DNA from: Candidatus Nomurabacteria bacterium
Lineage (GTDB): Bacteria; Patescibacteriota; Patescibacteriia; HK-STAS-PATE-3
DNA: 64,000 nt
Assembly (NCBI GenBank): GCA_023898465.1
Contig: CP060223.1
Location: 608,001-672,000 of the forward strand
Reading direction: 5' to 3'
Positions 17,179 through 64,000 of the stretch are shown piece by piece. The first letter of the stretch is position 1, and every line of letters begins with the position of its first letter. The notes below the pieces were generated by a model, which worked only from the letters and a program-made list of their open reading frames with translations, did no database searches and was not told where the DNA came from. The position numbers and the translations under genes are program-made.

Positions 17179-17180
17179 AA

Positions 17181-17555: not shown

Positions 17556-17557
17556 AG

Positions 17558-17956: not shown

Positions 17957-17965
17957 AGCGTAATA

Positions 17966-32606: not shown

Positions 32607-33429
32607 GCTACTAGTCCTGGGTGAGCAAAAATTATACAAAGTAGCCAAGCAGCATGCCAGACAAGATGCTGAAGCACTTTTACGCATAGTGCTGAAAAAA
32701 GATGTGGCTTGGCTTTTTGTGCATAGTGAAAAAACACTGACCCAGAGACAATATCTAGCCTATCAACAAATCCTCAAGCGCCGGGCAAAAAACACCCCAC
32801 TCGCCTATCTGCGTGGCTGGCAAGACTTTTACGGACGCAGATTTCATGTTGGTCCAGGCGTGCTGATTCCACGTCCAGAAACTGAAGCACTTATTGACTT
32901 AGCGCTGCAGTATTTCCCAGCCGCGAAAAAACTGCAGGTGGCCGACCTAGGCAGCGGCTCCGGCTGTATAGCCCTTAGCTTAGCCTGCGAGCGACCAAGG
33001 TGGCAGATCTATGCAACCGAACTATCCTCATCAGCAATCCACTATGCCCGTAAGAATGCCAAGCATTGGCAGCATAAAAATCTCCACATCATGCAAGGAA
33101 ATATGCTTCAACCATTACGCACAACAGCGCTCGACCTTATCGTGGCAAATCTCCCCTACCTTAAACCAGGAGAGGCAAAAGACGACAGCGTGGCGAAAGA
33201 GCCGAGGAAAGCTCTCGTAGCAGGTCAGGATGGCCTAAACGCTTTTCGTGTGTTATTCCAGCAAGTACAAAAACGTCCTGATACACCTACACTGCTTTTG
33301 GAAATCGATCCGCGGCGTAAGAAGGATTTACAAAAACTCCATCGTCAACTCCTGCCACAGTATCGGGCCAAATGGAAAAAAGACCTCAGCGGCCATTGGC
33401 GAGTCCTGGTCCTCGAATCGAAAATTTAA
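32545..33429 (+). CDS. prmC: Release-factor glutamine N5-methyltransferase
   Basis: It has a SAM motif (VADLGSGSGCIALSLA) and the catalytic NLPY, a variant of NPPY (IVANLPYL). It lies immediately downstream of prfA. The start is uncertain because no in-frame alternative to the first ATG avoids overlapping prfA. Confidence 0.75.
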   Translation: MALTQLSKRSKQKPSKQTIAKLLVLGEQKLYKVAKQHARQDAEALLRIVLKKDVAWLFVHSEKTLTQRQYLAYQQILKRRAKNTPLAYLRGWQDFYGRRFHVGPGVLIPRPETEALIDLALQYFPAAKKLQVADLGSGSGCIALSLACERPRWQIYATELSSSAIHYARKNAKHWQHKNLHIMQGNMLQPLRTTALDLIVANLPYLKPGEAKDDSVAKEPRKALVAGQDGLNAFRVLFQQVQKRPDTPTLLLEIDPRRKKDLQKLHRQLLPQYRAKWKKDLSGHWRVLVLESKI

Positions 33430-34571: not shown

Positions 34572-34580
34572 TCAAATCCC

Positions 34581-35705
34581 CTAATAGGTGACCTGTCGAT
34601 CATCTGGAAAAACCTGTACCCAGGTTTGCCCGGCGTTAAAAATGAGTTGTTGGCCTTCTAAATCGGTAAAAATTGTGCGGGCGCTGGTGGAAGATTTTGA
34701 CCAGCGTGCCGGAATCGCCTCACCGTCGCGGAAAAGAATAGCATCACCGGATCCAACAACATCCATGCTTAAGCGGGTCGCATCAGCTAAACGTGTACCA
34801 ACATATTGCACCAGCACATTCTTTGGGCTAATTTGCTCACCAGTATTCTGATCCGTATGCGCCTCATCGCCCTGGAATCGCAGATAAGTATTTTCTTCAC
34901 GATTATAGGTGTACTTTACCTCATAACTCTTGCTCGAGTAATCAAGCACAATCGGATTTACTTCAAGTGGCCTATCTGCTAAAGCAGCTTCCTCTTTAAA
35001 CTTCCAACCTGTGTAATCCCCTGTCATTGTTGCCTCTTTATCCCGCAAAGCAAATTGCAGGAGCTCAGTGGAAGTGAAAAGTGTATGTTCGGTCGCTCGT
35101 GGAAGATTTTTTCTCCAGTAATACTGGGAGTTATAGAATTGATCAAGGTCAAACACATCTTTGGAGCGAATATCTGCCAAAGCGGTAGGACTACCACCAG
35201 CGTGAGCATATATCGCGCCTAGCTCGTTTGCCCAATCAACATAATATGGTCGAGCACTGCGTACTGGTCCTAACTCAGGAATATCATCGGTTAAGAGGTA
35301 GACTGCTAGGAATCGTGTAATGCCGCCTTCAACTAAGGCCTCGTATACCACATTTGCTTGGCCAAGACCGCTTTGGGGGCGGACAATTGAAAGATTCTCT
35401 ATCATCACGCCAACTGGTCGTGGATTTTTATTCGCAGCAACATCAAGCACGCCATCAAGCACTCGTCGAACTTTTTGCTCGCTAGGCTGATTTGTATTAG
35501 TGACAATTACTTGCCCGTCATCGCTATCATCCGTTCGAGTAAGCAAAAAACCTGCTAATGCAACGACCGCAAGCACGACAACAACAAGAGTGATCTGGAC
35601 CGGCCTTTTCTTTAACCAAAGCGTCATTTTACCCTGCGGTTTGGCTGGTACTGCTACCTGCTCTACCCCCTCTTTCATCTCTCCTTTGGTATCCCCCTTA
35701 GGCAT
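34581..35705 (-). CDS. Secreted/membrane-anchored protein, paralog A of a tandem pair (possibly DUF3048/YerB-like)
   Basis: It has an N-terminal TM helix. It carries GPVRSARPYYVDWANELGAIYAHAGGSPTAL. The paralogs are collinear and about 40% identical. Confidence 0.45.
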   Translation of the reverse strand: MPKGDTKGEMKEGVEQVAVPAKPQGKMTLWLKKRPVQITLVVVVLAVVALAGFLLTRTDDSDDGQVIVTNTNQPSEQKVRRVLDGVLDVAANKNPRPVGVMIENLSIVRPQSGLGQANVVYEALVEGGITRFLAVYLLTDDIPELGPVRSARPYYVDWANELGAIYAHAGGSPTALADIRSKDVFDLDQFYNSQYYWRKNLPRATEHTLFTSTELLQFALRDKEATMTGDYTGWKFKEEAALADRPLEVNPIVLDYSSKSYEVKYTYNREENTYLRFQGDEAHTDQNTGEQISPKNVLVQYVGTRLADATRLSMDVVGSGDAILFRDGEAIPARWSKSSTSARTIFTDLEGQQLIFNAGQTWVQVFPDDRQVTY

Positions 35706-42786: not shown

Positions 42787-43968
42787 ATGGAAAAACGTCA
42801 TTCAACTCAAGGTCAGCTTCCAAAGTCTTATGCTCGAGCAGCAATCATTTTTATTTTTATTGTACTCATCGCTGGCGGCGGCGTACTTTATCTCTCCTTA
42901 TCGCGTACGATTGTCACAATCACCCCTCGCCAACAAGAATACTCAGTAACTGTGCCCGTGGCAGTGAGGGAAGATGAAATCGCAGAAGGTGGCGAACGAA
43001 GCGACAACTCAACTATCCAAGGCATGATCCTCACAGCTACTCGCACTCGACAAGGCACCTTCACGAGTTTAGGTGAAGGAAGCAGCGTGGCTGATACCGC
43101 CACCGGTCGAGTAACTATTTATAATAACTGGAACCAAACGCAGCCCTTGGCAGCTACCACTCGCTTCTTAACTGAAGATGGCGTGCTTTTTAGACTCAAA
43201 GAACGAGTTGATGTACCGGCTGCTTCATCGATTGAGGCGGAGGTATACGCTGATGAAAAAGGAGCCATCGGAAACATTGGACCAAGTCGCTTCACGCTGC
43301 CTGGTCTCTGGCCCGGCCTGCAGGAAAAAATCTATGCGGAGAGCACTACAGCAATGACAGGAGGATTAAAAGAAGTGAAGAGCGTCTCAGCAGAAGATTT
43401 ACGACAAGCTGAAAACACCCTACGATCGCAAATCGTTGAAGATGTACGCAGCTTTTTTCAAGACAGCTTAGCTGGTGAAGAAACCAAGTGGCAACTTCTC
43501 GATGACGCGCTTATCGGAACTATTACGGAAAAGGATTTCAGCGCCGAGGTTGGCGACCAAGTAGAAGACTTCACGGGCAGTCTCACGCTTAAGGTGGACG
43601 GCGTTGCTATACTTCCTAGCGATATCGCTGCCCTGGCTGCCACGCGACTCACTGAAGAAATTCCAGACAACACCATTCCCCTCTCCTCTGATGCCGAGGA
43701 AATTGAAACCACGGTTACAAAAATTAACACTGATACACAAACGGCTGAGTTAAGCATCACCGGAACTATCGACGCGAGCACGACCCTTGCGAATCCAATT
43801 TTTTCACGAAGCAATCTGGTCAGCCGTAGCCGACAAGAGATTCTCGAATACTTCTCTTCCTTCCCAGAGGTTGCTGCTGTCTCTATTCGCTTCTCCCCCT
43901 TTTGGGCCACTCAGGCTGCATCGCTTGAGGATCATATTGAAATTCGTTTTAATCAGCCTGAGCAATAA
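42787..43968 (+). CDS. Hypothetical membrane-anchored protein co-transcribed with dnaE
   Basis: It has an N-terminal TM helix and a large extracytoplasmic domain. I recognised no family. Confidence 0.4.
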   Translation: MEKRHSTQGQLPKSYARAAIIFIFIVLIAGGGVLYLSLSRTIVTITPRQQEYSVTVPVAVREDEIAEGGERSDNSTIQGMILTATRTRQGTFTSLGEGSSVADTATGRVTIYNNWNQTQPLAATTRFLTEDGVLFRLKERVDVPAASSIEAEVYADEKGAIGNIGPSRFTLPGLWPGLQEKIYAESTTAMTGGLKEVKSVSAEDLRQAENTLRSQIVEDVRSFFQDSLAGEETKWQLLDDALIGTITEKDFSAEVGDQVEDFTGSLTLKVDGVAILPSDIAALAATRLTEEIPDNTIPLSSDAEEIETTVTKINTDTQTAELSITGTIDASTTLANPIFSRSNLVSRSRQEILEYFSSFPEVAAVSIRFSPFWATQAASLEDHIEIRFNQPEQ

Positions 43969-44188: not shown

Positions 44189-45940
44189 ATGAAAGAACAA
44201 GCAGAAAAACTCCAACATATTCGTCACTCCTTTGCTCACCTACTCGCAGCTGCCGTACTACGTTTATGGCCTGATACAAAGCCTACTATTGGACCAGCCA
44301 TCGAAAACGGCTTCTATTATGATTTCGAATTTAAGTCACCAATCTCTGATAAGGATTTGCCAAAAATAGAAAAAATGATGCGCAAAACTTTGCAGGATTG
44401 GAAAGGCTTCGAGCGTTTTGAAGTATCTGCCAATGAAGCAAAGAAAGAATTTAAAACAAACGACTTTAAGCTCGAGTTGATTAAGGATCTGGAAAAAGAA
44501 AAACAAGCCATAACCATTTATCAATCTGGACACTTCAGAGATCTCTGCCGTGGTGGCCATGTTGAAGATATGAAAGAAATGAATCCTGAAGCATTTGGCT
44601 TGGCAAAGACCGCTGGAGCTTATTGGCGTGGCGATGAAAAGAAGCCAATGCTGACCCGCATTTACGGCTATGCCTTTGCTACAAAAGATGAGCTGGAAGC
44701 ATACAAAAAAATGCTTGAAGAAGCTGAGAAACGTGATCACCGTAAACTGGGTCAAGAGCTCGATCTCTTCACCTTCTCGGAATACGTTGGTGCGGGACTC
44801 CCCCTCTACACTCCCCGAGGTACTGTGCTCATCCGTGAAATTAGCGCGTACTTAAATGAACTAAAAGCCTCCAAGGGTTATGACTTCGTTGATATTCCTC
44901 ATATTGCGAAATCTGAACTCTATAAGACCTCCGGGCACTGGGACAAATTCAAGGATGGCATTTTTAAAGTGCAGGGACAGTCTGAGGAATTTGTGCTGAA
45001 GCCAATGAACTGCCCACACCATACGCAGATCTATGCCTCGCAGTTACGCAGCTACCGCGACCTGCCACTCCGCTATGCTGAGATTACCAAGCAATATCGC
45101 GATGAACAAAGCGGTGAGCTGCATGGATTATCCCGAGTGCGTTCAATTACTATCGACGATACGCATATCTTCTGCCGGCAGGATCAAATGCTGGAGGAAG
45201 CAAAAAACGCCTTTGCCATTATTGCTGAATTTAGTAAAACCCTAGGTTTACATTATCGAGTTACCCTGTCCGTTCGCGATCCGAAGCGCAAAAAAGATTA
45301 TCTCGGCAGCGACGAGGTATGGGAAAAAGCTGAGCAGGCCCTCGCACAGGTACTGAAAGATGAAGGTCAGGAATTTACCGTTGAGGAAGGTGAGGCAGCC
45401 TTCTATGGCCCAAAGATTGACTTCCATCAACTGGACGCTATTGGTCGTACTTGGCAGCTCTCCACTATTCAACTTGATTTTAACCAACCTGAACGCTTCA
45501 AGCTTGAATACACTGATACAAAAGGAGAGAAGGTGCGTCCGGTCATGCTTCATATTGCGGTCGCTGGATCACTGGAACGCTTCCTTTCAATTGCGATTGA
45601 ACACTTTGCCGGCGCCTTCCCGCTCTGGCTCTCACCAAGTCAGGTGCAGTTAATTCCAGTTACCAGTAAGCATGAAGAGTTTGTGCTTCAAATGGCGGAT
45701 GAATTTCGTACGCAAGGCATCCGCGTCGATGTGGACCTGATGAACGAAACCGTAGGGAATAAAATTCGCAAAGCAATTAAACGCAAAGTCCCCTACCTGC
45801 TTGTCATCGGTGATAAAGAACTTGCTTCGCCAAAACTGCATGTACGGAAACGCGGCAGTGAAGAGGTGCATGAATATACCAAGAAGAAATTCTTTGAAGA
45901 TATTCAAGAAAAGATCGCCCAACGCTCGCTCGAGCTGTAA
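44189..45940 (+). CDS. thrS: Threonyl-tRNA synthetase (lacks the N-terminal TGS domain)
   Basis: It begins at the editing-domain motif HIRHSFAHLLAAAVLRLWPDTKPTIGPAIENGFYYDF. It has class II core motifs and a C-terminal anticodon-binding domain. Confidence 0.85.
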   Translation: MKEQAEKLQHIRHSFAHLLAAAVLRLWPDTKPTIGPAIENGFYYDFEFKSPISDKDLPKIEKMMRKTLQDWKGFERFEVSANEAKKEFKTNDFKLELIKDLEKEKQAITIYQSGHFRDLCRGGHVEDMKEMNPEAFGLAKTAGAYWRGDEKKPMLTRIYGYAFATKDELEAYKKMLEEAEKRDHRKLGQELDLFTFSEYVGAGLPLYTPRGTVLIREISAYLNELKASKGYDFVDIPHIAKSELYKTSGHWDKFKDGIFKVQGQSEEFVLKPMNCPHHTQIYASQLRSYRDLPLRYAEITKQYRDEQSGELHGLSRVRSITIDDTHIFCRQDQMLEEAKNAFAIIAEFSKTLGLHYRVTLSVRDPKRKKDYLGSDEVWEKAEQALAQVLKDEGQEFTVEEGEAAFYGPKIDFHQLDAIGRTWQLSTIQLDFNQPERFKLEYTDTKGEKVRPVMLHIAVAGSLERFLSIAIEHFAGAFPLWLSPSQVQLIPVTSKHEEFVLQMADEFRTQGIRVDVDLMNETVGNKIRKAIKRKVPYLLVIGDKELASPKLHVRKRGSEEVHEYTKKKFFEDIQEKIAQRSLEL

Positions 45941-46001
45941 AAATTGCTGCAGGTAACGCAGGTAATTAAATGTTTACTCGTCTGCGTCTACTCAATCCAT
46001 C

Positions 46002-46030
46002 TTGACAGAAAGTGGGACTGCTCGTATCTT
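46002..46030 (+). promoter_or_regulatory. sigma70-like promoter of the 46094 gene
   Basis: It is TTGACA, a 17 nt spacer and TATCTT. A GGGAGG Shine-Dalgarno sits 7 nt before the ATG at 46094. Confidence 0.4.
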
Positions 46031-46093
46031 CACCTTATCCGACCTCGGTTGGATATTGCACATCATAATACACCCACTGCCCGGGAGGTCAGT

Positions 46094-46501
46094 ATGTCCC
46101 CGCAGAACGATCGAACAACTGGAGTGCCCCATCCGGCGTTTTGGTATCGACAAACCCTCATGGCGCGTCTCGCCTGCTTTGGTGTAACGCCTGATCGTTT
46201 GGCTCAGCTACGCACGCTCATCTCGCCGGATGACGAAATCACTCTCTACGGACTGATGAATAGCAAGCTCTTTGCTCTGCCGAGCACCTTGTATGATGGG
46301 GGCTTCCCTGCCGACAAGGTAGCACAGGCAACCCAAAGCGCTGAGGAAGAGCTTCGTCACGTCACTGATTGGATTGTCACGCTGCATCGGCAACATGCCG
46401 TACCATTGACCATCGTGCCGGCAACGGACACGAGCACCGAGCACACTGATACAGGACAAGGGGTTGGAGATGGCGGTAACGACGTGGACCTGGCGGTGTA
46501 A
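46094..46501 (+). CDS. Hypothetical protein (high-GC gene, ~57% GC)
   Basis: It has a good Shine-Dalgarno (GGGAGG) and a terminator-like hairpin after the stop (46508-46545). Its composition differs from the neighbouring genes. I recognised no family. Confidence 0.45.
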   Translation: MSPQNDRTTGVPHPAFWYRQTLMARLACFGVTPDRLAQLRTLISPDDEITLYGLMNSKLFALPSTLYDGGFPADKVAQATQSAEEELRHVTDWIVTLHRQHAVPLTIVPATDTSTEHTDTGQGVGDGGNDVDLAV

Positions 46502-46594
46502 CTCTCAAAAACCCTTCGGCGTTGCATAAACAAAGAAGGGTTTTTCCATTGACGCAAAATACTTTTTTCCCTAGACTCACTTTGGAGGTGAGTC

Positions 46595-46765
46595 ATGCCC
46601 TTTTCGAAAGACGACATTGCCCATATCCTTCGTGGCATCTGCTTTTCCCTTGGTCACCGAGGCTCTGTAGCAGAGGATCTCATGATGCTTCGTGATGACC
46701 GTAGGAGGACGAAGGAGAAGATGCGGAACAAGGCAGCAACCGCACCTGAATCAAGGGAAAAATAA
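46595..46765 (+). CDS. Small hypothetical protein (56 aa, basic C-terminus)
   Basis: It has its own promoter-like TTGACG, a 17 nt spacer and TAGACT. A GGAGGTG Shine-Dalgarno sits 5 nt before the ATG. I translated it by hand as MPFSKDDIAHILRGICFSLGHRGSVAEDLMMLRDDRRRTKEKMRNKAATAPESREK. Confidence 0.35.
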   Translation: MPFSKDDIAHILRGICFSLGHRGSVAEDLMMLRDDRRRTKEKMRNKAATAPESREK

Positions 46766-46811
46766 TCTACACCTACAAGCTTCTGGCTCGCTCAGAAGCT
46801 TCTTCCTAGCT

Positions 46812-47717
46812 ATGTCCCTCACACAAGTTATAATCATCCTGGGCCCCACCGCCTCTGGTAAATCATCTCTGGCTATTGCTCTGGCTAAGCGCTTCAAAGG
46901 GGAAATTATTTCCGCTGACTCTCGCCAGGTCTATCGTGGTCTTGATATTGGGACAGGCAAAGTGACAAAGAGAGAGATGCAAAGTATCCCCCATTATCTC
47001 TTGGATATTGCTAGTCCAACACGACAATACACTGTAGCGCAATTTCAAAAAGAGACTCAAAAGACTATTCGCAAGATTACTCGAAATAATAATTTGCCTA
47101 TCATCTGCGGTGGCACTGGTTTTTATATTGATGCAGTTGTTTCTGGTACAACACTTCCAGAGGTAAGGCCGAATAAAAAACTGCGAAAGCAACTGGTCAA
47201 AAAAACACCTGCGCAACTATTTCATATGCTGCAAAAGCTTGATCCTATTCGAGCGAAAAGTATTGACCCTCAAAATCCCGTGCGTCTGATTCGAGCAATT
47301 GAAATTGCCCAAAGCCTTGGCCGCGTACCTCAACTTCACGTAAAATCTCAATACGACGCATTGAAAATTGGTATCACTCTATCAAAAGAAAAACTGCACG
47401 ATAACATCCATCGTCGTTTACACGCTCGGATGCGGCAAGGCATGCTGGCCGAAGCAAAACGTTTGCATCGTCAGGGTCTAAGCTATCGTCGCATGGAAGC
47501 ACTTGGTTTGGAGTATCGCTATCTTGCCTATCACCTGCAGGGTAAATTAACAAAAAGTGAGATGCTGCAGCAGCTGGAGAAAGCTATCCAGCACTATGCC
47601 AAACGACAGATGACCTGGTTCAAGCGGGATAAAAATATACATTGGGTGAAAAGCGCCAAAGAGGCACAGGTGCTTACCAGGCAGTTTCTCAAAAAAGAAA
47701 ACTCTCCCCAGTCCTAG
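46812..47717 (+). CDS. miaA: tRNA dimethylallyltransferase
   Basis: Its P-loop N-terminus is MSLTQVIIILGPTASGKSSLAIALA, with DSRQVYRGLDIGTGK. The track ORF starts 120 nt upstream at a spurious Met. Confidence 0.85.
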   Translation: MSLTQVIIILGPTASGKSSLAIALAKRFKGEIISADSRQVYRGLDIGTGKVTKREMQSIPHYLLDIASPTRQYTVAQFQKETQKTIRKITRNNNLPIICGGTGFYIDAVVSGTTLPEVRPNKKLRKQLVKKTPAQLFHMLQKLDPIRAKSIDPQNPVRLIRAIEIAQSLGRVPQLHVKSQYDALKIGITLSKEKLHDNIHRRLHARMRQGMLAEAKRLHRQGLSYRRMEALGLEYRYLAYHLQGKLTKSEMLQQLEKAIQHYAKRQMTWFKRDKNIHWVKSAKEAQVLTRQFLKKENSPQS

Positions 47718-47735
47718 ACCAGGGAGAGCACATGT

Positions 47736-49262
47736 TCAGTCAACCAGCACTTCCCTCCTATCAAAGTGCTGTTCGCAGTAGTGGCAGGCCAGGACTTCCC
47801 GCCCTTCTCCGTTCACATGAAAGTGAGGATAGAGCGCTGCCTCCGCATCACACCTGGTCACGCAAGCCGGGTTGGGACAAGATCCGATACCGGTGATCTC
47901 ACGCACGGTCGCCACCCGCCGCTTCGTTAGCACACCATCACGAATTTCGTTGATGGTCACTTGAGGCACCAAGATGCCGATGGCAGAGAGCTCCCTTGCA
48001 TTCAAGAAAACATCTTCCAGCCGGAGCGTATCCTTCTTGCCGCCCTGACCATTAGACCGCAGTCCCTGATCAAGTCCCACGTAGTGCGCATTTGGATCCA
48101 GACCGAGCACCGACTGAATCCTCCTGCCAAAACCTACAGGCAAATGATCAAGTACCGTCCCGTTACTGATGGGCAAGAAGCGCTGCTGCGCCAACTGCTT
48201 GCGAGCAATCGCTTCATCAGCCGACCCACTTCGCACATCCTCGATCTCCGGCCCAATCACCTCAAGAGGTGTCTCCGCACAGCGACTATGGAGCGCCTCA
48301 TTCAAAAGGGCCATCCTGATCGGCACGCCGTTCGCTGCCTGAGCGTCGATGATGACTCGTGGGTCACCGAGGACAGAAGGATGAATCTCATTGTCACCGA
48401 TCGGCAGGGGGTGCATCACCAAGACCTTAGACCCAAGCATGTCTAGGGCCGCCTGGTCAATCGTGAAACGACCGGCAACCCTGTGGTATTCGTACTCGCT
48501 CGGGAAACGCTCTCGTTGCACCCGAGTCGCATAGACCAAGTGGCACCCTGCCAGCGTCTCCAAATCACTCGCCACGGTGACATTGTACATGCCTCTCGTA
48601 TACCACCACTGCAACTGTGCTTCCGGTGCTGAGACTAGTACAATCTCCACACCCTCTAGCAGGCGCAGTGCGCGAATCAAGGAATGCACCGTGCGAGAAT
48701 ACTTGAAATCACCCACGAAACCAATCTTGAAACCATTCAGTCGACCCAAATGGCGCCGAATGGTGTAGAGATCAAGAAGGGTCTGGCTGGGATGCTCATT
48801 CGCACCGTCGCCAGCATTGAGTACGCAGAGTTGCATACCTCGCCGTGCAGCCATCTCAGCCACCCAACGAGGAGCACCCTCCACTTTTGTCCGCATCACC
48901 AGGGCTGACCCATTGTAGCCGCAGAACATTCGTGCGGTTGCCCCGAGTGTCTCCCCCTTTACCAAGGAAGTTCCCTCGGCCCCTGAGGTCAGCACATGCG
49001 GCAGACCCAGCAGACGCGCTGCCTCCTCGAATGATCCGGCGGTCCTAGTGCTCGGCTCTCCAAAGAGAAGCCGCACAACACCTTGATCGCTAACACTCGG
49101 CAAAGGCTCGCCCTTCTCCCAAGTCATTCGATAGGACTCAGCACTTGCCAAAACCCCATCGATGAAAGGAAGATCGAAATCACCAACCGAGATCACATGC
49201 TTCACTGCTTGCCTCCTTGTCAACCCAAGCAACAACTTCGATGTTAAACACAGAAGGTTCAC
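47736..49262 (-). CDS. pyrBI: Aspartate carbamoyltransferase catalytic chain fused to regulatory chain (PyrB-PyrI single polypeptide)
   Basis: Residues 1-330 carry the STRT carbamoyl-phosphate motif (FGEPSTRTAGSFE) and the HPxQ motif (HPSQTLLDLYTI). Residues ~355-508 match PyrI (GTVLDHLP, zinc domain CPNPAC...CHYCEQHF). The frame has no internal stop. The gene is about 58% GC. Confidence 0.7.
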   Translation of the reverse strand: MNLLCLTSKLLLGLTRRQAVKHVISVGDFDLPFIDGVLASAESYRMTWEKGEPLPSVSDQGVVRLLFGEPSTRTAGSFEEAARLLGLPHVLTSGAEGTSLVKGETLGATARMFCGYNGSALVMRTKVEGAPRWVAEMAARRGMQLCVLNAGDGANEHPSQTLLDLYTIRRHLGRLNGFKIGFVGDFKYSRTVHSLIRALRLLEGVEIVLVSAPEAQLQWWYTRGMYNVTVASDLETLAGCHLVYATRVQRERFPSEYEYHRVAGRFTIDQAALDMLGSKVLVMHPLPIGDNEIHPSVLGDPRVIIDAQAANGVPIRMALLNEALHSRCAETPLEVIGPEIEDVRSGSADEAIARKQLAQQRFLPISNGTVLDHLPVGFGRRIQSVLGLDPNAHYVGLDQGLRSNGQGGKKDTLRLEDVFLNARELSAIGILVPQVTINEIRDGVLTKRRVATVREITGIGSCPNPACVTRCDAEAALYPHFHVNGEGREVLACHYCEQHFDRREVLVD

Positions 49263-49518
49263 TCCTGTGCCCTCTAGAAGAACTGAGTCCCGCGTACCGA
49301 AGCATCAAGAATGCTCCCGGGTACGAAATCTATTTAACCCACATGAACCCATATGCGACTCACTGGGTTATGCGGAGGTATGTCAACGAGCACAAAAAAT
49401 CCGCCACTGGGCGGATCAAATCAGCCTTATTGCCTCCGAAATATCTGGTACAGAGTATTTCATTCCTACGAGAGTGTAAACCGGACAACCTACAGCGTCA
49501 AGTGGAAAAAGTAAATGA

Positions 49519-49547
49519 TTGACATTTCCGCAAAAATGCCCTAAAAT
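49519..49547 (+). promoter_or_regulatory. Strong sigma70-type promoter of nhaA
   Basis: It is TTGACA (49519-24), a 17 nt spacer and TAAAAT (49542-47). A GGGAGGG Shine-Dalgarno sits before the ATG at 49599. Confidence 0.55.
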
Positions 49548-49598
49548 GCGCCCGAACTTGAGCTATACGAGGCTCCGCAACACCGAGGGAGGGTTTGT

Positions 49599-50738
49599 AT
49601 GCGGCAACTCAGCCGTGGTATTGATTTCTTGTTCGAGAACTCGATCTTTCTCATTCTATCGGCCGTGATTGCCCTAATCTGGGCCAATCACGACTACGAG
49701 GCCTACGAGAACTTTGTCTACCCGGTGCACTTCTGGATCAACGACGTCGCCATGTGCTTCTTCTTTGGCATGGCGGCCAAGGAAATCTGGGAGTCTTTTC
49801 TCCCGGGAGGCGCGCTGTCATCACCCAAACAAGCATCCCTTCCGATTATCGCCACACTCGGCGGTATGACTGGACCTGCAGTGCTCTACCTCATCTCCTG
49901 CAGTCTCTTCAAGTTGGAAGTGCTGCAGGTTGGGTGGGCAATTCCTTGCGCCACCGACATCGCCTTCTCCTACCTCTTCGCACGGATGATCTTTGGCAAA
50001 GGACATCCGGCAATCCCCTTCCTGCTCCTCCTCGCTATCGCCGACGACGCGCTCGGACTCATTGTCTTGGCAGTCTTTTACCCCAACGGCGATGTCTCTC
50101 TGCTGCACTTCCTCGGCTGGGTAGCTCCTGCCATGGGAATCGCCTATGTCATGCGTCGCAAGCGCGTGCTCAGCTTCTGGCCCTATCTACTGATCCCGGG
50201 AGTCATGAGCTGGTACGGCTTCTTCCGCGGCGGCATCCATCCGGCTCTGGCCCTAGTGGTCATCGTCCCGCTGATGCCAAGCGCCAAAGCTGACCTGGGA
50301 CTCTTTGCGGAGAACGAGGAAAATCGCCAAGACACCCTGGACCGCTTCGAGCACTGGTGGAAGAAACCTGTCGAGCTGATTCTTGGTCTCTTCGGTCTCG
50401 TGAATGCTGGAGTACTCTTTGGCAACGCTGGCATCGCTACTGGCATCGTGATGGTCTCATTGCTGCTGGGCAAACCACTGGGCATTACCATCTTTACGCT
50501 GATCGGCATGGGCTTCGGCCTGAGTCTACCGCGCAGGATGTCGATGCGAGACGTCATCGTCCTTGGCTCTGTTGCTGGCGTAGGATTCACCGTTGCGCTC
50601 TTTGTAGCCACGGTGGCTCTGCCAGCCGGACCTCTGCTCGATGCGGCCAAGCTGGGAGCCCTTGCCTCCATGCTAGCCGCTGTACTTTCTCTCATCTTGG
50701 CAAAAATGCTGGGCGTCCGGCGTATCAGCCAAGCCTAA
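49599..50738 (+). CDS. nhaA: Na+/H+ antiporter NhaA
   Basis: It has NhaA-family blocks (FFFGMAAKEIW; AIPCATDIAFSY; LLLAIADDALG) and about 11 TM helices. The gene is high-GC. Confidence 0.8.
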   Translation: MRQLSRGIDFLFENSIFLILSAVIALIWANHDYEAYENFVYPVHFWINDVAMCFFFGMAAKEIWESFLPGGALSSPKQASLPIIATLGGMTGPAVLYLISCSLFKLEVLQVGWAIPCATDIAFSYLFARMIFGKGHPAIPFLLLLAIADDALGLIVLAVFYPNGDVSLLHFLGWVAPAMGIAYVMRRKRVLSFWPYLLIPGVMSWYGFFRGGIHPALALVVIVPLMPSAKADLGLFAENEENRQDTLDRFEHWWKKPVELILGLFGLVNAGVLFGNAGIATGIVMVSLLLGKPLGITIFTLIGMGFGLSLPRRMSMRDVIVLGSVAGVGFTVALFVATVALPAGPLLDAAKLGALASMLAAVLSLILAKMLGVRRISQA

Positions 50739-50748
50739 ATCTCAACCC

Positions 50749-50780
50749 GAAGCCACGGACACTCGTTCGTGGCTTCTTTC
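50749..50780 (+). terminator. Hairpin terminator after nhaA
   Basis: It is a 9-bp stem, GAAGCCACG...CGTGGCTTC, followed by TTTCT. The T-run is weak. Confidence 0.45.
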
Positions 50781-50782
50781 TA

Positions 50783-51958
50783 CTACAATGCTAAGGGATT
50801 AACCCAAGGAGTGAGAGCGGCCTCACTCTGTACATAGCCAGCAATATCAGTCACAGACCCTAGGTGAATACCAAAGTGCAAATGCTTTCGCTCACCATCA
50901 GTTTCGCTTGTTCCACCTTTCCCTAAATATCCGAGCTCTTGTCCAGCCAGCACCTGCGCACCAAGCCTTGGTAAACTGTCTGGCGCAATATGTCCATAGA
51001 CTGCGGTGTAGGTCTCGCTCTGCCATTGAAAGCGTAAAACAAAAACACCGCCGTATCCTGAGGCAGTGCGTGAGAGGATGATTTCCCCGGGCCCAATTGC
51101 CCGCACTGGTATAGGAATATCATCGGTGTCACCAAACTCAACATCAACAGCAGTATGAAAACCACTGAATCGTTCGGGTTGAACTGGAGAGTTTTGCGCA
51201 GTGATGTACTGACCAAAATGTTTCAAGGTTATACGATCACGAAACTGCTCAATTGGTTCAAGGAGATGCGCAGTCGGAAGTGCTGCAGTGTCAACGACAA
51301 GTGACTCTAAAAAACGATCATACACGGACTGATCTAAATCTGGGTGTTTGGCAATGACATAAAAAACCGAGGGGCTATCATCACTCACTCGCACATCAGT
51401 TACCATATGTCGTTGATTACGCCAAGCTGGTTGGGCAGGAAAATTTCCCACCCCGGCCTTTTTCTCAATGTCATAGCGCACTGCTGGACGCCCAACAACC
51501 GTTAATTCTTCACGTGAGTGAATAGTCACTGTGGAAAGCGTAAGAAAATCGTTGGCAGTGAAGCTGCGTAAAAAGATTTGTGATTGCGCCAACGTGTTCT
51601 CACCCGCTGCGGCTGGGTCGTAAATATTGAGTGCGGCAATTTCCTTGACGGCCTCAGCTTGCCAAGTTGGAGGAATCTCTGCGCTAAACTGAAAATCAGC
51701 GCTGCTATCACTTAGCTCCTGGGCAAGTAAGACTTTAGTGCTTGGTCGGGTTGTAGGATCAGTGATCTCAGTATTTATATCAGCCACATCCTCATCCACA
51801 TTCACTGACTCTTCAGCATTTGGTAAACCAGTTAACCCTACCACTACAACGATAACTGCAACTATAGCAACAACGGTCCAGATGGTAGAAAACCCTCTAG
51901 GCGATTCGGCTCTATGCTGCGTAAATAACCAAAATCGACGTAGCATTGACTTTAGCAT
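50783..51958 (-). CDS. M23-family metallopeptidase with N-terminal membrane anchor
   Basis: Its C-terminal LytM-type motifs are HTAVDVEF, GIHLG and HLHFGIH. It has an N-terminal TM helix. Confidence 0.7.
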   Translation of the reverse strand: MLKSMLRRFWLFTQHRAESPRGFSTIWTVVAIVAVIVVVVGLTGLPNAEESVNVDEDVADINTEITDPTTRPSTKVLLAQELSDSSADFQFSAEIPPTWQAEAVKEIAALNIYDPAAAGENTLAQSQIFLRSFTANDFLTLSTVTIHSREELTVVGRPAVRYDIEKKAGVGNFPAQPAWRNQRHMVTDVRVSDDSPSVFYVIAKHPDLDQSVYDRFLESLVVDTAALPTAHLLEPIEQFRDRITLKHFGQYITAQNSPVQPERFSGFHTAVDVEFGDTDDIPIPVRAIGPGEIILSRTASGYGGVFVLRFQWQSETYTAVYGHIAPDSLPRLGAQVLAGQELGYLGKGGTSETDGERKHLHFGIHLGSVTDIAGYVQSEAALTPWVNPLAL

Positions 51959-51978: not shown

Positions 51979-53469
51979 CTAAGCGCTTGTCAAGCGTTCT
52001 TCAAGAAGCTTTTCTAAGACTTTAGGGTCAGCTCTCCCCTGTGTCTCTCGCATAGCCTGGCCCAGGAAGAACTTGAGTAAAGCGATTTTACCTTTGCGAT
52101 ACTCTTCAGCTTTCTCTGGATGCGCATCGAGCACTTTTTGCACCACGTCTCGTAAAGCACCCTCATCGCTCACCTGCCCTAAACCTTTCTGCGCGACAAT
52201 ATCAGAAGGATCGCCACCAATTTTTACCATTTCCTCGAGAAGTTGTTGAGCAGCCGGCGCATTGACCGCACCTGATTGCACAATCTTCACATACTCAGCG
52301 AAATTCTCTGGTGTGATATCTTTAGCATTCGACACTTCATTGCGAAGTTTTTCATAGCGATGCACAAGCAGATTGGCAACTTGCTTGGCATACTTTCCTT
52401 TTTCCTGCTCCCAAACCAGCCCCGGCTCGTTCTCTGCTTCCATCCAAGCGCGCAGCTCTGAAACAACCTCTTCAGCAAATTTCCCTAAATGCTGGTCAGT
52501 CACTAAACGCTCTATCACTTCGACCGGGAAGCCTAATTCTGACTGATAACGCTGACGACGTGCAGCCGGAAGCTCGGGCATAGCAGCAGCAATTTTTTCG
52601 AGATACTCAGCGCTAAAATGTAGAGGTGGAATATCCGGCTCAGGGAAATAGCGGTAGTCGGCTGCTTCTTCTTTCGTACGCTGCTCGACTGTTTCATTCT
52701 TTGTCTCTTCCCAACCGCGAGTGGCTAACTGCATCGGCGGCATGCCTGCCTCCCATAATTTTGTCTGACGCTCGACTTCAAAAGTTAACGCGCGCTCGAC
52801 TGAACGGAAGGAATTCAGGTTTTTAATCTCGGTTTTGGGATAGAGCTCAGTATCACCCTCTGGACGCAATGAAATGTTTGCATCAACACGCAGTTGACCT
52901 TTTTCCATATCAGCATTCGATACGCCAAGGTAACGCATGAGTAAGCGTAATTCAGTTAAGAAGATGCGCGCTTGAGCTGGGGTCTGAATATCCGGCTTGG
53001 TGACAATCTCAGCTAAGGGGGTGCCTGCTCTATTAAAATCGATTTGCGTCATCTCCTGACCCGGTTCGTGTAAAAGCTTGGCTGAATCCTCTTCTAAATG
53101 CAGACGCTCAATCCGCACCCGATGCGCTTGCTCGCCCTCAACCACATCCAGGTAACCATTCTCCCCAATCGGCTGATCCAACTGAGAGATTTGATAACCT
53201 TTCGAGAGATCGGGGTAAAAATAGTGTTTACGGTCAAACTTTGACTCAGTGTTTATTTTGCAGTTGAGGCCGAGGGCAGCCAAAACTGACCAGTCAATCG
53301 CTTGCTGATTAGGCACAGGGAGAGTACCTGGCTGCGCAGTACAAATCTCACAGATAGTAGTGTTGGGGGCTTGTCCTTCACCGGTATTATCACAAGCGCA
53401 AAAGAGTTTGCTCTTCGTTTTTAGCTGTACGTGAATTTCTAATCCAATAATTGTTTCGTAGGTAGCCAT
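51979..53469 (-). CDS. gatB: Asp-tRNA(Asn)/Glu-tRNA(Gln) amidotransferase subunit B
   Basis: Its N-terminus is MATYETIIGLEIHVQLKTKSKLFCAC. It has a C-terminal YqeY-like tail. Confidence 0.9.
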   Translation of the reverse strand: MATYETIIGLEIHVQLKTKSKLFCACDNTGEGQAPNTTICEICTAQPGTLPVPNQQAIDWSVLAALGLNCKINTESKFDRKHYFYPDLSKGYQISQLDQPIGENGYLDVVEGEQAHRVRIERLHLEEDSAKLLHEPGQEMTQIDFNRAGTPLAEIVTKPDIQTPAQARIFLTELRLLMRYLGVSNADMEKGQLRVDANISLRPEGDTELYPKTEIKNLNSFRSVERALTFEVERQTKLWEAGMPPMQLATRGWEETKNETVEQRTKEEAADYRYFPEPDIPPLHFSAEYLEKIAAAMPELPAARRQRYQSELGFPVEVIERLVTDQHLGKFAEEVVSELRAWMEAENEPGLVWEQEKGKYAKQVANLLVHRYEKLRNEVSNAKDITPENFAEYVKIVQSGAVNAPAAQQLLEEMVKIGGDPSDIVAQKGLGQVSDEGALRDVVQKVLDAHPEKAEEYRKGKIALLKFFLGQAMRETQGRADPKVLEKLLEERLTSA

Positions 53470-53473
53470 GAGA

Positions 53474-54163
53474 TTATTTTAGCACTTCTTGTACAGTCTT
53501 CCAGACTTGCTCAGCAATATGTTCGCGATCCTGCATCACGCCATTTTTGGTACACGTTATCACCTTCCAGGAAAAACGTGCTGATAAGCGATGCGCCATT
53601 TCCCAACTCGTCTGCTGATGACGTTTATTCTTTTCCAGACTATCGACAGCCTTTCCGCCCAGGTAATTACGATGACCTTTTGCTCGTACGAGCTTACGTC
53701 CTATGGTATGCGGCACGGAGAGAAAAACAGTCAGATCAGGCTTGAGCACTCCAAGTATGTGATACTCCATTTCTTCTAACCAATGGAGATACTCCTTCTG
53801 CTCCAAAGCTGTTTGAAACTTGGCCGCCTGATGCATCATGCTTGAGGAAGTATAGCGATTACAGACAACTACTTTCCCTTGCGCTAACCATTTATTCAAC
53901 TGATCCTTTGCCTGCCAACGATCAAGTGCATACAAGAGTGAGGCAAGATAAGGATTCACTTTTAGTGTCGGTCCAAATTTGCCCTGAATGAATTGACCGA
54001 CCATGGCCCCAAAGAAACTTTCATCATAACGAGGAAAATCAGCTAAGGCAGTCTGATACCCCTGCTTTTTTAGACGCTGAATAAGGAGACCAGCTTGCGT
54101 TGCCTTGCCAGATCCATCCACCCCGTCGAGTACGATCAGTTTTCCGCTTTGCTTCTTTTTCAC
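53474..54163 (-). CDS. tmk: Thymidylate kinase
   Basis: Its P-loop is LIVLDGVDGSGKATQAGLL, matching the Tmk signature. It has a DR(Y/W) motif region. Confidence 0.75.
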   Translation of the reverse strand: MKKKQSGKLIVLDGVDGSGKATQAGLLIQRLKKQGYQTALADFPRYDESFFGAMVGQFIQGKFGPTLKVNPYLASLLYALDRWQAKDQLNKWLAQGKVVVCNRYTSSSMMHQAAKFQTALEQKEYLHWLEEMEYHILGVLKPDLTVFLSVPHTIGRKLVRAKGHRNYLGGKAVDSLEKNKRHQQTSWEMAHRLSARFSWKVITCTKNGVMQDREHIAEQVWKTVQEVLK

Positions 54164-54270: not shown

Positions 54271-55974
54271 ATGATTCCACCCATGCCTACATTCACACCC
54301 GAAGAAATCGAAGTGCTCAAAAAGTATATCACCGACCCCACGGGTGATGTTTTTTGTATTAAAAACATGCCTGGTCTGGTTGGAGCAGCCTATGCCCGCT
54401 ACAGCCGTGCCCGTGGCGGATTTCGAGAAGTACTACTCAAAGAATTTATTAGCGAAGGGGTGGTAGACGCCGAGCATGCGGAAGATCTTATCGAGCGTGT
54501 CTTAATTGCCTATGGCGATGATTCAGTTGGCGAATTAGAAGGCGCTCACATCTCTTTTGAAAATATCTCCATACTTGCCACGAAAGAAATTGAAGAATGT
54601 CGCATTGGTGGCTCCCCCATCGAGCAATCCACTCGTTATGTTTTCTACGACCAAAAAGATGCGCAGGGAAAATATAAATACATTGTCCCGCCTGAACTAG
54701 AAGGAAGCGATTTAGCAAATGAATATACCGAGGCCATGGACTTCCTCTTTGACACCTACTGCCGCCTCATCGAACCCATGAAGGAATTTTATAAGAAGCG
54801 ATTGCCCCTGAAGCAAGCTGAATATGATGTGCTAGGAAATGGCAATAAGCAGCACTATGAAGAGCTGGAAAATGAAAAAGACCAAAAAGCCTTTAAGACA
54901 ACTTATAACATGGATATTCGCACAAAGGCCTGCGACACTTTGCGCTATATCCTCCCACTAGCAACGACCACCAACGTCGGTATTTTTGGCAATGGCCGAT
55001 TCCATCAAAGCATGATCTCTGCTCTACTCTCCAGTCATTTTCGAGAAACCCAAAGGCTGGGCGATGCGGCTTTGCGAGAGCTGAGTAAAATAATTCCGGT
55101 CTATGTGCGGCGCGCCAAGCGAGATGAATATCGCACCACGATTGAACATGACATGGAACGCTTAGTAAGCGACTTACTCGCCAATGTGGAGGCAGAAACC
55201 CCGACTGAAGAAATACACCTTATGGACGAAGGCGAGGCGTATATTGCGAAACATTTGAACGGCCAAAGCGACCCTGCGGCGCTTCGTCAAGCTATAGCCC
55301 GATATCGTGATACTTCCCTCCTGGCCCACATCCTCTATGCCTACGCCCAGCATCCTTTGTCACAGCTAATGGATTTTGTTGAGCAACTTTCAGAAGAAAA
55401 ACGTAAAGAGATTATTGATACCTACATTGGTCAGCGCCGCACCCGTCGTGACCGCCCTTATCGTGCTTTTGAAAGCGGCTACCCCTACACCTTTGACCTG
55501 GTTACCGACTTTGGCAGCTACAAAGATCTCATGCGCCATCGCATGACCACGCAGCTACGTCAGCGCTTCTCGCCTGAGCTGGGCTTTGCCATGCCGCAAG
55601 ATATTATTGAGGCAGGCTTCAGCGAAGAGATTCAGGCTTGTCATGAGCGCTCACAAGAACTTTATCGCAAGCTAGCCAAGCAACTTCCTCAGATTGCTCA
55701 ATATGCTGCCCTGCACGGCTCTAAAGTGCGCTGGGTGATTGGGATGAACGAACGAGAGGCCTATCACCTACTTGAACTCCGCACCACTCCACAGGGCCAT
55801 CCTGCCTATCGTAAAGTCGGCCAGGAGATGCACAAACGTATTCAGGAGCGTTCAGCTTGGCGCGCCGCCCGTATGAGCTTTGTTGACCACAACAGCTACA
55901 CCTCTGCTCGCGGCGACTCAGAGGCAAAGCAGCGAGTCAAAGAACGCAAATACGAAGAAACGCACGGCGCCTAA
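54271..55974 (+). CDS. Flavin-dependent thymidylate synthase-like protein (Thy1/ThyX family, double-length ~567 aa)
   Basis: Its ThyX-like N-terminus is MPGLVGAAYARYSRA. It has an RHR-containing segment (YKDLMRHRMTTQLRQRF) resembling the ThyX motif RHRxxSxxxLxQRY. The track ORF begins upstream at 54100 and overlaps tmk. I place the start at the internal Met that has a promoter. Confidence 0.5.
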   Translation: MIPPMPTFTPEEIEVLKKYITDPTGDVFCIKNMPGLVGAAYARYSRARGGFREVLLKEFISEGVVDAEHAEDLIERVLIAYGDDSVGELEGAHISFENISILATKEIEECRIGGSPIEQSTRYVFYDQKDAQGKYKYIVPPELEGSDLANEYTEAMDFLFDTYCRLIEPMKEFYKKRLPLKQAEYDVLGNGNKQHYEELENEKDQKAFKTTYNMDIRTKACDTLRYILPLATTTNVGIFGNGRFHQSMISALLSSHFRETQRLGDAALRELSKIIPVYVRRAKRDEYRTTIEHDMERLVSDLLANVEAETPTEEIHLMDEGEAYIAKHLNGQSDPAALRQAIARYRDTSLLAHILYAYAQHPLSQLMDFVEQLSEEKRKEIIDTYIGQRRTRRDRPYRAFESGYPYTFDLVTDFGSYKDLMRHRMTTQLRQRFSPELGFAMPQDIIEAGFSEEIQACHERSQELYRKLAKQLPQIAQYAALHGSKVRWVIGMNEREAYHLLELRTTPQGHPAYRKVGQEMHKRIQERSAWRAARMSFVDHNSYTSARGDSEAKQRVKERKYEETHGA

Positions 55975-56343: not shown

Positions 56344-56943
56344 CTATCCTTCGAGCTTCTTCAACACTGTATCAACTTTTTGATAAAGCTCATCCTGCCC
56401 TCCATTATTCTCAATCCGATAATCTGCCATTGCAACACAGCGATGAATGTTCTGTTTATGCGGATCATCGCTTCGCATCTCCCGCTCCTCCTCAGCTACA
56501 AACTCCGCAAAGGTGACGTTATCGGTATCAGTTAATCCCCGCTTATACAAGCGCTCATAACGCAGCTTTTGATCAGCATCTAAAGCAATAACCACGCCGC
56601 CCATTTTTTGCACTGCCTCCACTTCAGCTGGCACGCGGATGCTCTCCACAATCACCCGGTCAGATTCAGCTAAACCCCTTCGGGCCATAGTGGCGATAAC
56701 ATAGTCAGGACCAAACTGCCGCCGCAAATCATTTCCTACCTGCACCAACATATCACGGTTTTCTGCTAAGCCGCGCTTTTGAATTTCGGCGCGAATAAAT
56801 TCACGTGCTGAGTAATGTTGATACCCTTTTTGAATGAGATACTCCGAAACAGCACCTTTACCAGCTGCCAGCGTGCCGGTCAAACCAATGAGTTTTGGAG
56901 CCGGTTTAGGGATTTCTGCCGGACGAGTTGAGATGCATACCAT
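56344..56943 (-). CDS. coaE: Dephospho-CoA kinase-like P-loop kinase
   Basis: It carries IGLTGTLAAGKGAV (compare GLTGGIxSGKST). Its C-terminus ADYRIENNGGQDELYQKV resembles the CoaE C-terminus. Confidence 0.55.
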   Translation of the reverse strand: MVCISTRPAEIPKPAPKLIGLTGTLAAGKGAVSEYLIQKGYQHYSAREFIRAEIQKRGLAENRDMLVQVGNDLRRQFGPDYVIATMARRGLAESDRVIVESIRVPAEVEAVQKMGGVVIALDADQKLRYERLYKRGLTDTDNVTFAEFVAEEEREMRSDDPHKQNIHRCVAMADYRIENNGGQDELYQKVDTVLKKLEG

Positions 56944-58039: not shown

Positions 58040-58516
58040 TTATTTTTCCTCTTTAGCTAATTGACTACGATACTGTCTATATTTCACTCCAGCAGCATCA
58101 AGTATGCGGCGAGAAGCAACCCAAACCGGCCGGTCGTGATTGCGATCGCTCTCAAATACCACTTCCTTAATTCCTGTTTGCACTATTGTTTTAGCGCATT
58201 CATTGCATGGGAAAAGTAAGCAGTAGAGAATTCCACCCTTGGTGCTCTGATTTGCGTTGTAGATAGCGTTCTCCTCAGCGTGGACCACATAGGTATTTTT
58301 CACGTTGAGAAAATCACCTTCGCTATCCCAAGGGAAATCGTGCTCAGTCCCCCGCGGCCAGCCATTATAGCCCATACCGACGATGACGTTGTCTTGATTT
58401 ACAATCACCGCTCCGGTCTGGGTAGACGGATCCTTGGAGCGCTGGCTAATCACATGCGCCATCTGCATCAGGCATTCGTCCCAGGAAAGATAGTTTTCTC
58501 GTGGAGGACGCGCCAT
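58040..58516 (-). CDS. dCMP deaminase (ComEB-like)
   Basis: It has the zinc-binding H(A)E motif (VVHAEENAI) and the PCxxC motif (LFPCNECAKTIV). Confidence 0.8.
   Translation of the reverse strand: MARPPRENYLSWDECLMQMAHVISQRSKDPSTQTGAVIVNQDNVIVGMGYNGWPRGTEHDFPWDSEGDFLNVKNTYVVHAEENAIYNANQSTKGGILYCLLFPCNECAKTIVQTGIKEVVFESDRNHDRPVWVASRRILDAAGVKYRQYRSQLAKEEK

Positions 58517-62547: not shown

Positions 62548-64000
<1,453 letters not shown>

Follow-up and report, generated by a model that had tools for sequence, protein, structure and literature searches.

Three GC-rich, Shine-Dalgarno-led gene cassettes, one carrying a fused pyrBI gene with a putative leader attenuator, in Candidatus Nomurabacteria

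Genes whose base composition departs from that of their host are routinely read as recent transfers. The locus described here raises the question of whether that reading holds for three genes with high G+C (GC) content in a 64-kb stretch of the genome of a Candidatus Nomurabacteria bacterium (contig CP060223.1), hereafter the window. The genes encode a small helical protein (46094-46501), a putative fused PyrB-PyrI aspartate carbamoyltransferase (ATCase), referred to as PyrBI, and a Na+/H+ antiporter, NhaA. A first-pass annotation had joined them into one high-GC patch at 45950-50780 and proposed horizontal acquisition. Reading the GC deviation as a sign of recent transfer is wrong for two of them at least.

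The compositional contrast itself is real. The three genes had been put at about 56-58% GC against about 47% for their neighbours, and they measure 56.5-57%: 0.566 for the small gene, 0.565 for PyrBI (47736-49205; 0.561 on the longer open reading frame (ORF) 47736-49262) and 0.570 for NhaA (49599-50738), in a window with a mean of 46.9% (0.469). They are the three outliers among about 57 long ORFs. Every other ORF lies between 0.40 and 0.51, including the adjacent genes for MiaA (0.453), an M23 peptidase (0.474) and threonyl-tRNA synthetase (ThrRS; 0.456), and the intergenic DNA stands at 0.48. GC content at third codon positions (GC3) is 0.60 in the small gene, 0.61 in PyrBI and 0.69 in NhaA, compared to 0.32-0.55 in the remaining ORFs. 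When amino-acid composition is corrected for with a codon table drawn from the window itself, GC3 remains in excess by +0.17 (z=3.6) for the small gene, +0.17 (z=3.6) for PyrBI and +0.24 (z=5.1) for NhaA. The amino-acid composition of PyrBI is also GC-rich (z = 2.2-2.6). The codon shift is towards G-ending codons in PyrBI and towards C-ending codons in NhaA, which means that the two genes have no single origin or process in common.

The GC-rich stretch is interrupted. Normal-GC intergenic DNA and miaA, which encodes a 301-aa tRNA isopentenyltransferase (46812-47717, plus strand; Pfam IPPT; GC 0.45), split the proposed patch, and the three GC-rich genes are separate cassettes, not one island. 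The cassettes are self-contained units set into a conserved housekeeping backbone of DnaE, a 393-aa protein, ThrRS and, further on, MiaA convergent with GatB, Tmk and ThyX. Each follows one plan: a sigma70-like promoter, a 5' untranslated region (5' UTR) and a strong Shine-Dalgarno (SD) motif lead into a coding sequence rich in GC, which an intrinsic terminator closes. Like other compositionally atypical acquired genes or islands, these genes deviate in GC, GC3 and codon usage, are missing from remoter backbones and bring their own expression signals. Unlike typical islands, they deviate upward in a moderately AT-rich host, persist past synonymous saturation across lineages, and form three units that have no mobility genes, tRNA target or flanking repeats. 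A Pfam scan found no integrase or transposase domains around the GC-rich genes, a search for flanking direct repeats returned short, imperfect matches at chance level, and no tRNA gene is adjacent, the nearest lying ~17 kb away; Rfam found five tRNAs and nothing more in the entire window. The hallmarks of an island are thus divided: compositional deviation from the host is present, mobility hallmarks are absent, and absence from close relatives applies to NhaA only. A chimera with a higher-GC organism, arising in assembly or binning, would account for the abrupt GC steps and for nothing else, and is hardly credible. Across 21,140 bases the window and an independent assembly of another run differ nowhere (0 mismatches), showing that the sequence is not such an artefact; the arrangement also recurs in other genomes, and miaA at native GC is interleaved between the GC-rich genes.

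Comparison with other loci and proteins, given here as L- and P-numbers, indicates how long two of the cassettes have been in place. The syntenic relatives L003 (GCA_016294925.1), L086 (GCA_964594455.1) and L087 (GCA_028714495.1) share the order dUTPase-ThyX-thymidine kinase (TK)-Tmk-GatB-(SpeE)-PyrBI, which meets the opposing series MiaA-MiaB-small gene-ThrRS-385-aa protein-DnaE, and in all three PyrBI lies between ThrRS and GatB and converges with miaA. PyrBI of L001, 66% identical to that of the window, is likewise convergent with miaA. In the relatives, too, PyrBI and the small gene are rich in GC and preceded by an SD motif. PyrBI is a GC outlier in L003 (0.529) and L086 (0.527) against ~0.41, with GC3 residuals of +0.167 (z=5.8) and +0.184 (z=4.5), respectively, and in L087, where the native level is higher, its GC3 is 0.60. 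Across all four genomes PyrBI GC3 stays within 0.58-0.61, compared to a native GC3 of 0.39-0.55. Weak homologues of the small gene follow ThrRS in L003, L086 and L087 (window vs L087, 35% over 66 aa, E = 8e-11), and these are GC-elevated too (0.47-0.54). The ThrRS of the window is 61-64% identical to that of the syntenic relatives.

The divergence between these genomes is large enough to speak to the age of the deviation. PyrBI identities are 69% for L003-L086, 54.5% for L003-L087 and 45-48% for the window against each, and GatB identities are 78% (L003-L086), 68-70% (with L087) and 51-53% (window against the others). The PyrBI ranking (L003-L086, then L086-L087, then the window against the others) matches that of GatB, ThyX and Tmk, and of MiaA within the clade. 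At conserved four-fold codons the window and its relatives agree at chance level in every gene, PyrBI included (0.23-0.29 observed, ~0.25 expected), and in the closest pair the residual synonymous signal of PyrBI equals that of its flanks. Since synonymous sites are saturated and GC3 is still ~0.6, the high GC is not a donor signal that has yet to ameliorate, and an amelioration lag can be discarded as its cause. Some force must hold the composition, because the same deviant GC3 is found at the same locus despite saturation; the candidate forces are selection, biased conversion and repeated replacement. Classical translational selection was also considered and rejected as the cause of high GC3: the genes for EF-Ts, S2, L25, L1 and RF are at native codon usage.

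Remoter relatives, which came from scanning metagenomes for a clade-specific anchor protein, lack the insertions. In L100 and L108 miaA and gatB converge as immediate neighbours and the small gene is missing after ThrRS; because these sites are empty, a horizontal gain at some point is likely. The simplest reading of the sequence comparisons is one old gain of the PyrBI and small-gene cassettes followed by vertical descent, the gain falling before the split from the lineages of L003, L086, L087 and L001; we infer both the direction and the timing of the gains. The proposal of horizontal acquisition thus stands in part: a gain probably took place, and a later one is plausible for NhaA, but the gain was not recent for PyrBI or the small gene. 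The first-pass annotation had itself named best matches from syntenic close relatives as an outcome that would speak against its proposal, and this is what we find for PyrBI and the small gene, not for NhaA. A single recently acquired island, bringing all three genes from one foreign high-GC donor, would explain the strong deviation in GC and GC3, a promoter and SD motif for each gene, and the absence of the genes from remoter backbones. We consider it very improbable. Native-GC miaA sits inside it, PyrBI and the small gene keep both synteny and high GC in relatives diverged to synonymous saturation, the codon signatures of PyrBI and NhaA differ, repeats, integrase and tRNA are lacking, and the best PyrBI matches are from Patescibacteria.

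Several observations weigh against an old gain with vertical descent, a reading that has only four or five genomes, and their pairwise identities, to draw on. A simple neighbour-joining tree does not group PyrBI of the window and P0001 with the syntenic clade (bootstrap 4/100). Three Candidate Phyla Radiation (CPR) subclades of PyrBI, namely the syntenic one, a Kerfeldbacteria-like one and the window with P0001, are about equidistant (45-50%), and an independent insertion or in-situ replacement in the window's lineage is possible. The locus is clearly plastic: the window has no MiaB, which adjoins miaA in the relatives, and a search there for remnants of MiaB, SpeE and TK found none. The MiaA of the window is closest to those of L095 and L108 (~48-54%), while its ThrRS and GatB are closest to those of L003, L086 and L087, and miaA may itself have been replaced. 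In the relatives, TK identities are incongruent with the flanks (44%, 44% and 58%, with L003-L086 at 44% and L086-L087 at 58%, where GatB gives 78% and 70%), which suggests that TK was replaced in situ. Finally, the persistence of the high GC3 has no mechanism to account for it, and the shift is not seen in translation genes.

Some of these observations would fit a different history, in which PyrBI, the small gene, TK and NhaA are exchanged recurrently from a GC-richer, SD-led pool common to Patescibacteria and replaced in situ by homologous recombination via their conserved flanks. Such exchange would keep composition high without selection on GC. It would account for the TK incongruence, for a window MiaA that groups with L095 and L108, unlike ThrRS and GatB, and for equidistant PyrBI subclades with no clear branching order. 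In its favour, Kerfeldbacteria-like contigs hold PyrBI at a native 62-65% GC in a different synteny, and GC-rich SD-led blocks occur in other loci. However, PyrBI identities are congruent with the flanks among L003, L086, L087 and the window, PyrBI synonymous divergence equals that of the flanks in the closest pair, and GC3 is ~0.6 in all four copies, with no spread of donor values. We regard recurrent exchange as unlikely, though deserving of serious attention.

NhaA has a different distribution from the older cassettes. The gene identities of the first-pass annotation, PyrB-PyrI and NhaA, are borne out by Pfam and TIGR00670 for PyrBI and by PF06965 for NhaA. The NhaA gene (49599-50738, plus strand; 379 aa) matches PF06965 at 209 bits over profile positions 11-372 of 374, full-length, and falls below the TIGR00773 equivalog cutoff (155 vs 254). 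Its 'ADD' motif sits where the E. coli protein has Asp163-Asp164. The protein is 100% identical to one annotated NhaA in Candidatus Nomurabacteria. NhaA is not at this site in L003, L086 or L087, where SpeE or nothing is found. Of the three genes, only NhaA fits a later acquisition, given that no syntenic relative has it at this position, and it is the best candidate for one. Homologues at 55-60% identity come from many very different phyla, so no donor can be named, and the closest ones, at 60-70%, lie on metagenome contigs. In the CPR-like contig L090 (51-56% GC) NhaA has native composition, and raised GC and an SD motif recur in its copies at the low-GC CPR-like loci L091 and L121. The L121 copy belongs to a 3.8-kb block (L121:5245-9038) of five GC-rich genes (0.46-0.55), of which 4/5 have an SD motif, in a background of 29-42% GC without SD motifs. 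NhaA would most likely have arrived later from the same kind of pool of GC-richer, SD-led genes, in circulation among Patescibacteria. Old PyrBI and small-gene cassettes with a later NhaA, taken as a whole, make up the explanation that we hold to be probable, with considerable room for doubt.

Expression signals separate the GC-rich genes from the rest of the window. The small-gene cassette has a sigma70-like promoter (TTGACA-17-TATCTT, 46002-46030, plus strand; 10/12 matches in a promoter scan), the SD motif GGGAGG at 46083-46088, the coding sequence for 135 aa, and a terminator-like hairpin at 46510-46547, AACCCTTC ... GAAGGGTT followed by TTTCC; this hairpin was found by reading the sequence by eye, as its 18-nt loop exceeds the limit of the terminator scan. 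On the minus strand, PyrBI (47736-49205) is preceded by AAGGAGG at 49212-49218, 6 nt ahead of its GTG start and kept in relatives, and is followed by an intrinsic terminator with a 13-bp stem and T-run (47691-47729; terminator scan) that overlaps the 3' end of miaA. The NhaA cassette has the promoter TTGACA-17-TAAAAT at 49519-49547 (plus strand; 11/12 matches), a 5' UTR of ~45 nt, GGGAGG at 49587-49592 and, after the gene, an intrinsic terminator with a 12-bp stem and T-rich tail (50749-50786; terminator scan). An SD motif GGGAGG had been claimed for each gene; it is present for the small gene and NhaA, and PyrBI has AAGGAGG instead. Promoter and SD motif together had been described as unlike those of most native genes, which is accurate for the SD motif, found in 4/4 ORFs of the GC-rich patches vs 4/54 native ORFs of the window. 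It does not extend to promoters, as the native ThrRS and ThyX promoters match as well as those of the cassettes. In several native genes (for example gatB at 53469, and those at 38878 and 21094) a -10-like hexamer ends ~6 nt before the start codon, which suggests that several native genes are leaderless.

The same division recurs elsewhere. In L003, L086, L087, L091 and L121, as in the window, most native genes have no SD motif and the GC-rich ones nearly always have AAGGAGG. The TK gene of the syntenic relatives (L003:4794-5420, L086:4761-5402 and L087:6329-6967) is also GC-rich and SD-led. When six low-GC loci were pooled and genes at least 0.05 above the locus median were counted as GC-rich, an SD motif was present in 17/20 GC-rich genes vs 12/121 others (Fisher p ~1e-11). 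This p overstates the evidence, since the test treats orthologues as independent and takes start sites from gene callers, a point that weighs against the link between SD motif and GC; the pattern is nonetheless consistent across loci. The combination of maintained composition and SD dependence in a class of genes is a new feature. GC-richness and SD dependence would be maintained properties of this gene class, not a fading donor signature.

Maintained composition could also be read without any relevant transfer. The genes would then be native, GC-rich codons and SD motifs would be co-selected in a leadered, SD-dependent class (possibly for mRNA stability or controlled translation), and the empty sites would be losses. 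A GC3 that is constant across saturated divergence, the tight association of SD motif and GC, and a conserved regulatory leader all agree with this. Against it, none of the syntenic relatives has NhaA at the site, several of the genes that are GC-rich and SD-led are ORFans of one lineage, translation genes do not share the shift, and the GC-rich amino acids of PyrBI suggest an origin in a GC-richer lineage. We judge this alternative decidedly unlikely.

Upstream of PyrBI lies a conserved leader (49392-49501, minus strand). A promoter, TTGACG (49501-49496) -17- TACACT (49478-49473), is located ~270 nt upstream of PyrBI, and is followed by a 15-codon leader ORF (49463-49416) that encodes MKYSVPDISEAIRLI and whose stop codon overlaps a terminator hairpin and T-run (49417-49392). 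Altogether, ~300 nt precede PyrBI in the window. The same layout is found in 5/5 sequences: the window, L001 (75-200), L003 (9815-9945), L086 (9805-9935) and L087 (9815-9945). In each, an ORF of 15-16 codons starts 9-11 nt past the -10 box without an SD motif and is therefore near-leaderless, and a GC-rich hairpin with a U-run begins 0-8 nt after the leader stop codon; all five sequences fold into the hairpin. A spacer of 100-190 nt separates the terminator from AAGGAGG and the start codon. The leader peptides are not conserved, whereas the nucleotide block GGAGGCAAnAAGnCTGA is. No Rfam family matches the leader region at E <= 5. The conserved pyrBI leader is a new feature.

Terminators placed a few bp past a stop codon are repressed by ribosomes (PMC4824070). 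Because a terminating ribosome represses a nearby terminator, the layout fits an attenuator that depends on leader translation: a ribosome finishing the leader ORF would block the hairpin, and transcription would read into pyrBI. From its arrangement, we infer that the PyrBI leader is a putative leader-peptide attenuator. In the window the terminator is not that of the upstream gene, because that gene is divergent, and in L001 there is a separate terminator upstream. Weighing against the attenuator, the terminator could equally serve a co-directional upstream gene in 3/5 sequences, and five sequences make up the comparison. The pyrBI operon of E. coli is reportedly controlled by a UTP-sensitive leader-peptide transcription attenuator, described by Turnbough and colleagues and mentioned in PMC4824070. 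As there, a promoter, a short leader ORF and an intrinsic terminator precede pyrBI, and a ribosome near the hairpin is expected to suppress termination. Unlike the E. coli leader ORF of 44 codons, which runs through the hairpin, the ORF described here has 15-16 codons and ends at the hairpin; it is also near-leaderless and without an SD motif, there is no evident U-rich pause tract upstream, and ~100-190 nt lie between terminator and pyrBI.

Taken across loci, the link between GC and SD motif points to two translation-initiation regimes in the CPR, which would affect gene calling, expression prediction and the inference of horizontal gene transfer. We put forward tentatively, and with more doubt than conviction, that these Patescibacteria hold two gene classes: an AT-richer, SD-less and often leaderless majority, and a leadered, SD-led, GC-rich minority whose composition (GC3 ~0.6 for PyrBI) is actively maintained past synonymous saturation, with pyrBI under a previously undescribed near-leaderless-peptide attenuator. 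If true, composition and mode of translation initiation would be coupled by selection or a biased process, and the deviation would not be a fading trace of transfer.

The protein encoded by PyrBI carries the Pfam domains OTCace_N, OTCace, PyrI (51.9 bits) and PyrI_C (46.4 bits) in one chain, all above cutoffs. The gene had been drawn as 47736-49262, but it starts at a GTG at 49205, 19 codons downstream of that ORF start, and encodes 489 aa beginning MKHVIS. It passes TIGR00670 (aspartate carbamoyltransferase) at the equivalog level (260.4 bits vs a cutoff of 236.95). TIGR00240 is below its cutoff (90 vs 148.6), which indicates that the PyrI domain of the fused protein is divergent. Residues S51, T52, R53, T54, K82, R104, H137, Q140, R170, R227 and Q229 are invariant in 22 fused homologues; the residues of E. 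coli PyrB that bind carbamoyl phosphate and aspartate are S52-T53-R54-T55, K84, R105, H134, Q137, R167, R229 and Q231. The residue after STRT (E. coli R56) varies within the fused clade. The zinc cysteines C442, C447, C473 and C476 are invariant in the fused homologues, and the nearest solved structures to the catalytic half are archaeal ATCases. These sequence features suggest a putative ATCase, and public annotation already labels these CPR proteins ATCase.

The best matches to PyrBI are fused PyrBI proteins of Patescibacteria (45-66% identity), and remoter members of the fused clade come from DPANN archaea and Syntrophomonadaceae. A search of genome contigs with the fused-PyrBI alignment gave ordinary pyrB-pyrI operons and no Patescibacteria among the matches listed, and no relatives came out of a metagenome scan in which PyrBI was the sole query. 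A fused catalytic-regulatory ATCase is established in Thermotoga maritima (Chen et al. 1998, cited in PMC4581275). Like that enzyme, PyrBI joins the two PyrB domains, for carbamoyl phosphate and aspartate, to the allosteric and zinc domains of PyrI, in a similar order and at a similar overall length. Unlike it, PyrBI reaches 144 bits against a cutoff of 800 on NF009916 ('bifunctional aspartate carbamoyltransferase catalytic/regulatory subunit'), the Thermotoga-type fused ATCase, which places it outside that equivalog; the proteins nearest to it form a separate Patescibacteria fused clade. The PyrBI fusion may be independent of the Thermotoga-type fusion.

An ATCase isolated from other pyrimidine genes had been considered odd for a streamlined genome, and the point is weaker than it sounds. 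Profile scans found no carAB, pyrC, pyrD, pyrE or pyrF inside the 64-kb window, but the PyrBI cassette adjoins a conserved pyrimidine-nucleotide cluster of Tmk, ThyX, dUTPase and dCMP deaminase. For a Parcubacterium, pyrimidine pathways that are near-complete have been reported (PMC5220378), and nucleotide synthesis is absent from other Patescibacteria (PMC11809585). A fused and apparently attenuator-controlled ATCase bears on the extent to which pyrimidine metabolism is kept and regulated by these reduced symbionts.

The product of the small gene is predicted to fold into five helices (pLDDT 74, the predicted local distance difference test), with no fold match in the PDB and no Pfam or NCBIfam family. 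Three homologues were found among 1.8 billion representatives, and P0242, a homologue, has the same N-terminal MSPQNDRTTG. Between the small gene and miaA, a promoter-like site (TTGACG-17-TAGACT), the SD motif GGAGGT and a 56-codon ORF (46595-46765) occupy 46549-46765 on the plus strand at a GC of 0.50. The independent assembly carries a gene call for this ORF, searches for homologues and domains found none, and its protein-coding status is uncertain. A 93-aa ORF of the public assembly (49241-49522, plus strand; no Pfam match) runs antisense over the PyrBI leader; it is probably a false gene call, having no homologues and covering a conserved leader on the other strand. The ORF 49754-50293, which had been offered as a long spurious antisense frame, shares the strand of nhaA and differs from it in reading frame.

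The variable zone is bounded on the left by ThrRS (44189-45940, plus strand; Pfam tRNA-synt_2b, HGTP_anticodon and tRNA_SAD) and on the right by GatB (51979-53469, minus strand; Pfam GatB_N and GatB_Yqey), both native backbone genes. An M23 peptidase of native composition (50783-51946, minus strand; Pfam Peptidase_M23; GC 0.474) follows nhaA and is likewise not at this site in the L003, L086 and L087 contexts. The ThrRS-GatB interval looks like a recombination-prone zone.

Other genes of the window showed further features. The 393-aa protein (42787-43968, plus strand) is clade-specific and always found after DnaE; it has a strongly conserved PGLWPGLQxKIY motif and a weak Baseplate_J match, and serves as a phylogenetic anchor for the lineage. 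The dTMP kinase (53474-54163, minus strand; 229 aa) is only 22-25% identical to the Tmk proteins encoded at the corresponding position in the relatives, themselves 71-79% identical, and may be a non-orthologous or xenologous replacement. ThyX (54283-55974, plus strand) is unusually long at 563 aa, with two Thy1 stretches and a score below the TIGR02170 cutoff; in the relatives it has 565-569 aa. An AAA_18-type kinase and a dCMP/cytidine deaminase (56344-56943 and 58040-58516, minus strand) give partial matches, far below cutoff, to the NCBIfam family 'anti-phage dCTP deaminase' and probably belong to ordinary nucleotide salvage. At 62548-63963 (minus strand) only the C-terminal parts of GyrB are present (DNA_gyraseB, Toprim and C-terminal domain; GC3 0.54, z = 2.4), and the N-terminal ATPase part must lie beyond the end of the window or be split off. 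The lowest-GC stretch of the window (38-42%), at 16804-20389 on the minus strand, holds three tandem stand-alone response-regulator receiver genes after a Cache-HAMP-PAS histidine kinase. Two tandem paralogous DUF3048 proteins of 381 and 374 aa are encoded at 33426-35705 on the minus strand.

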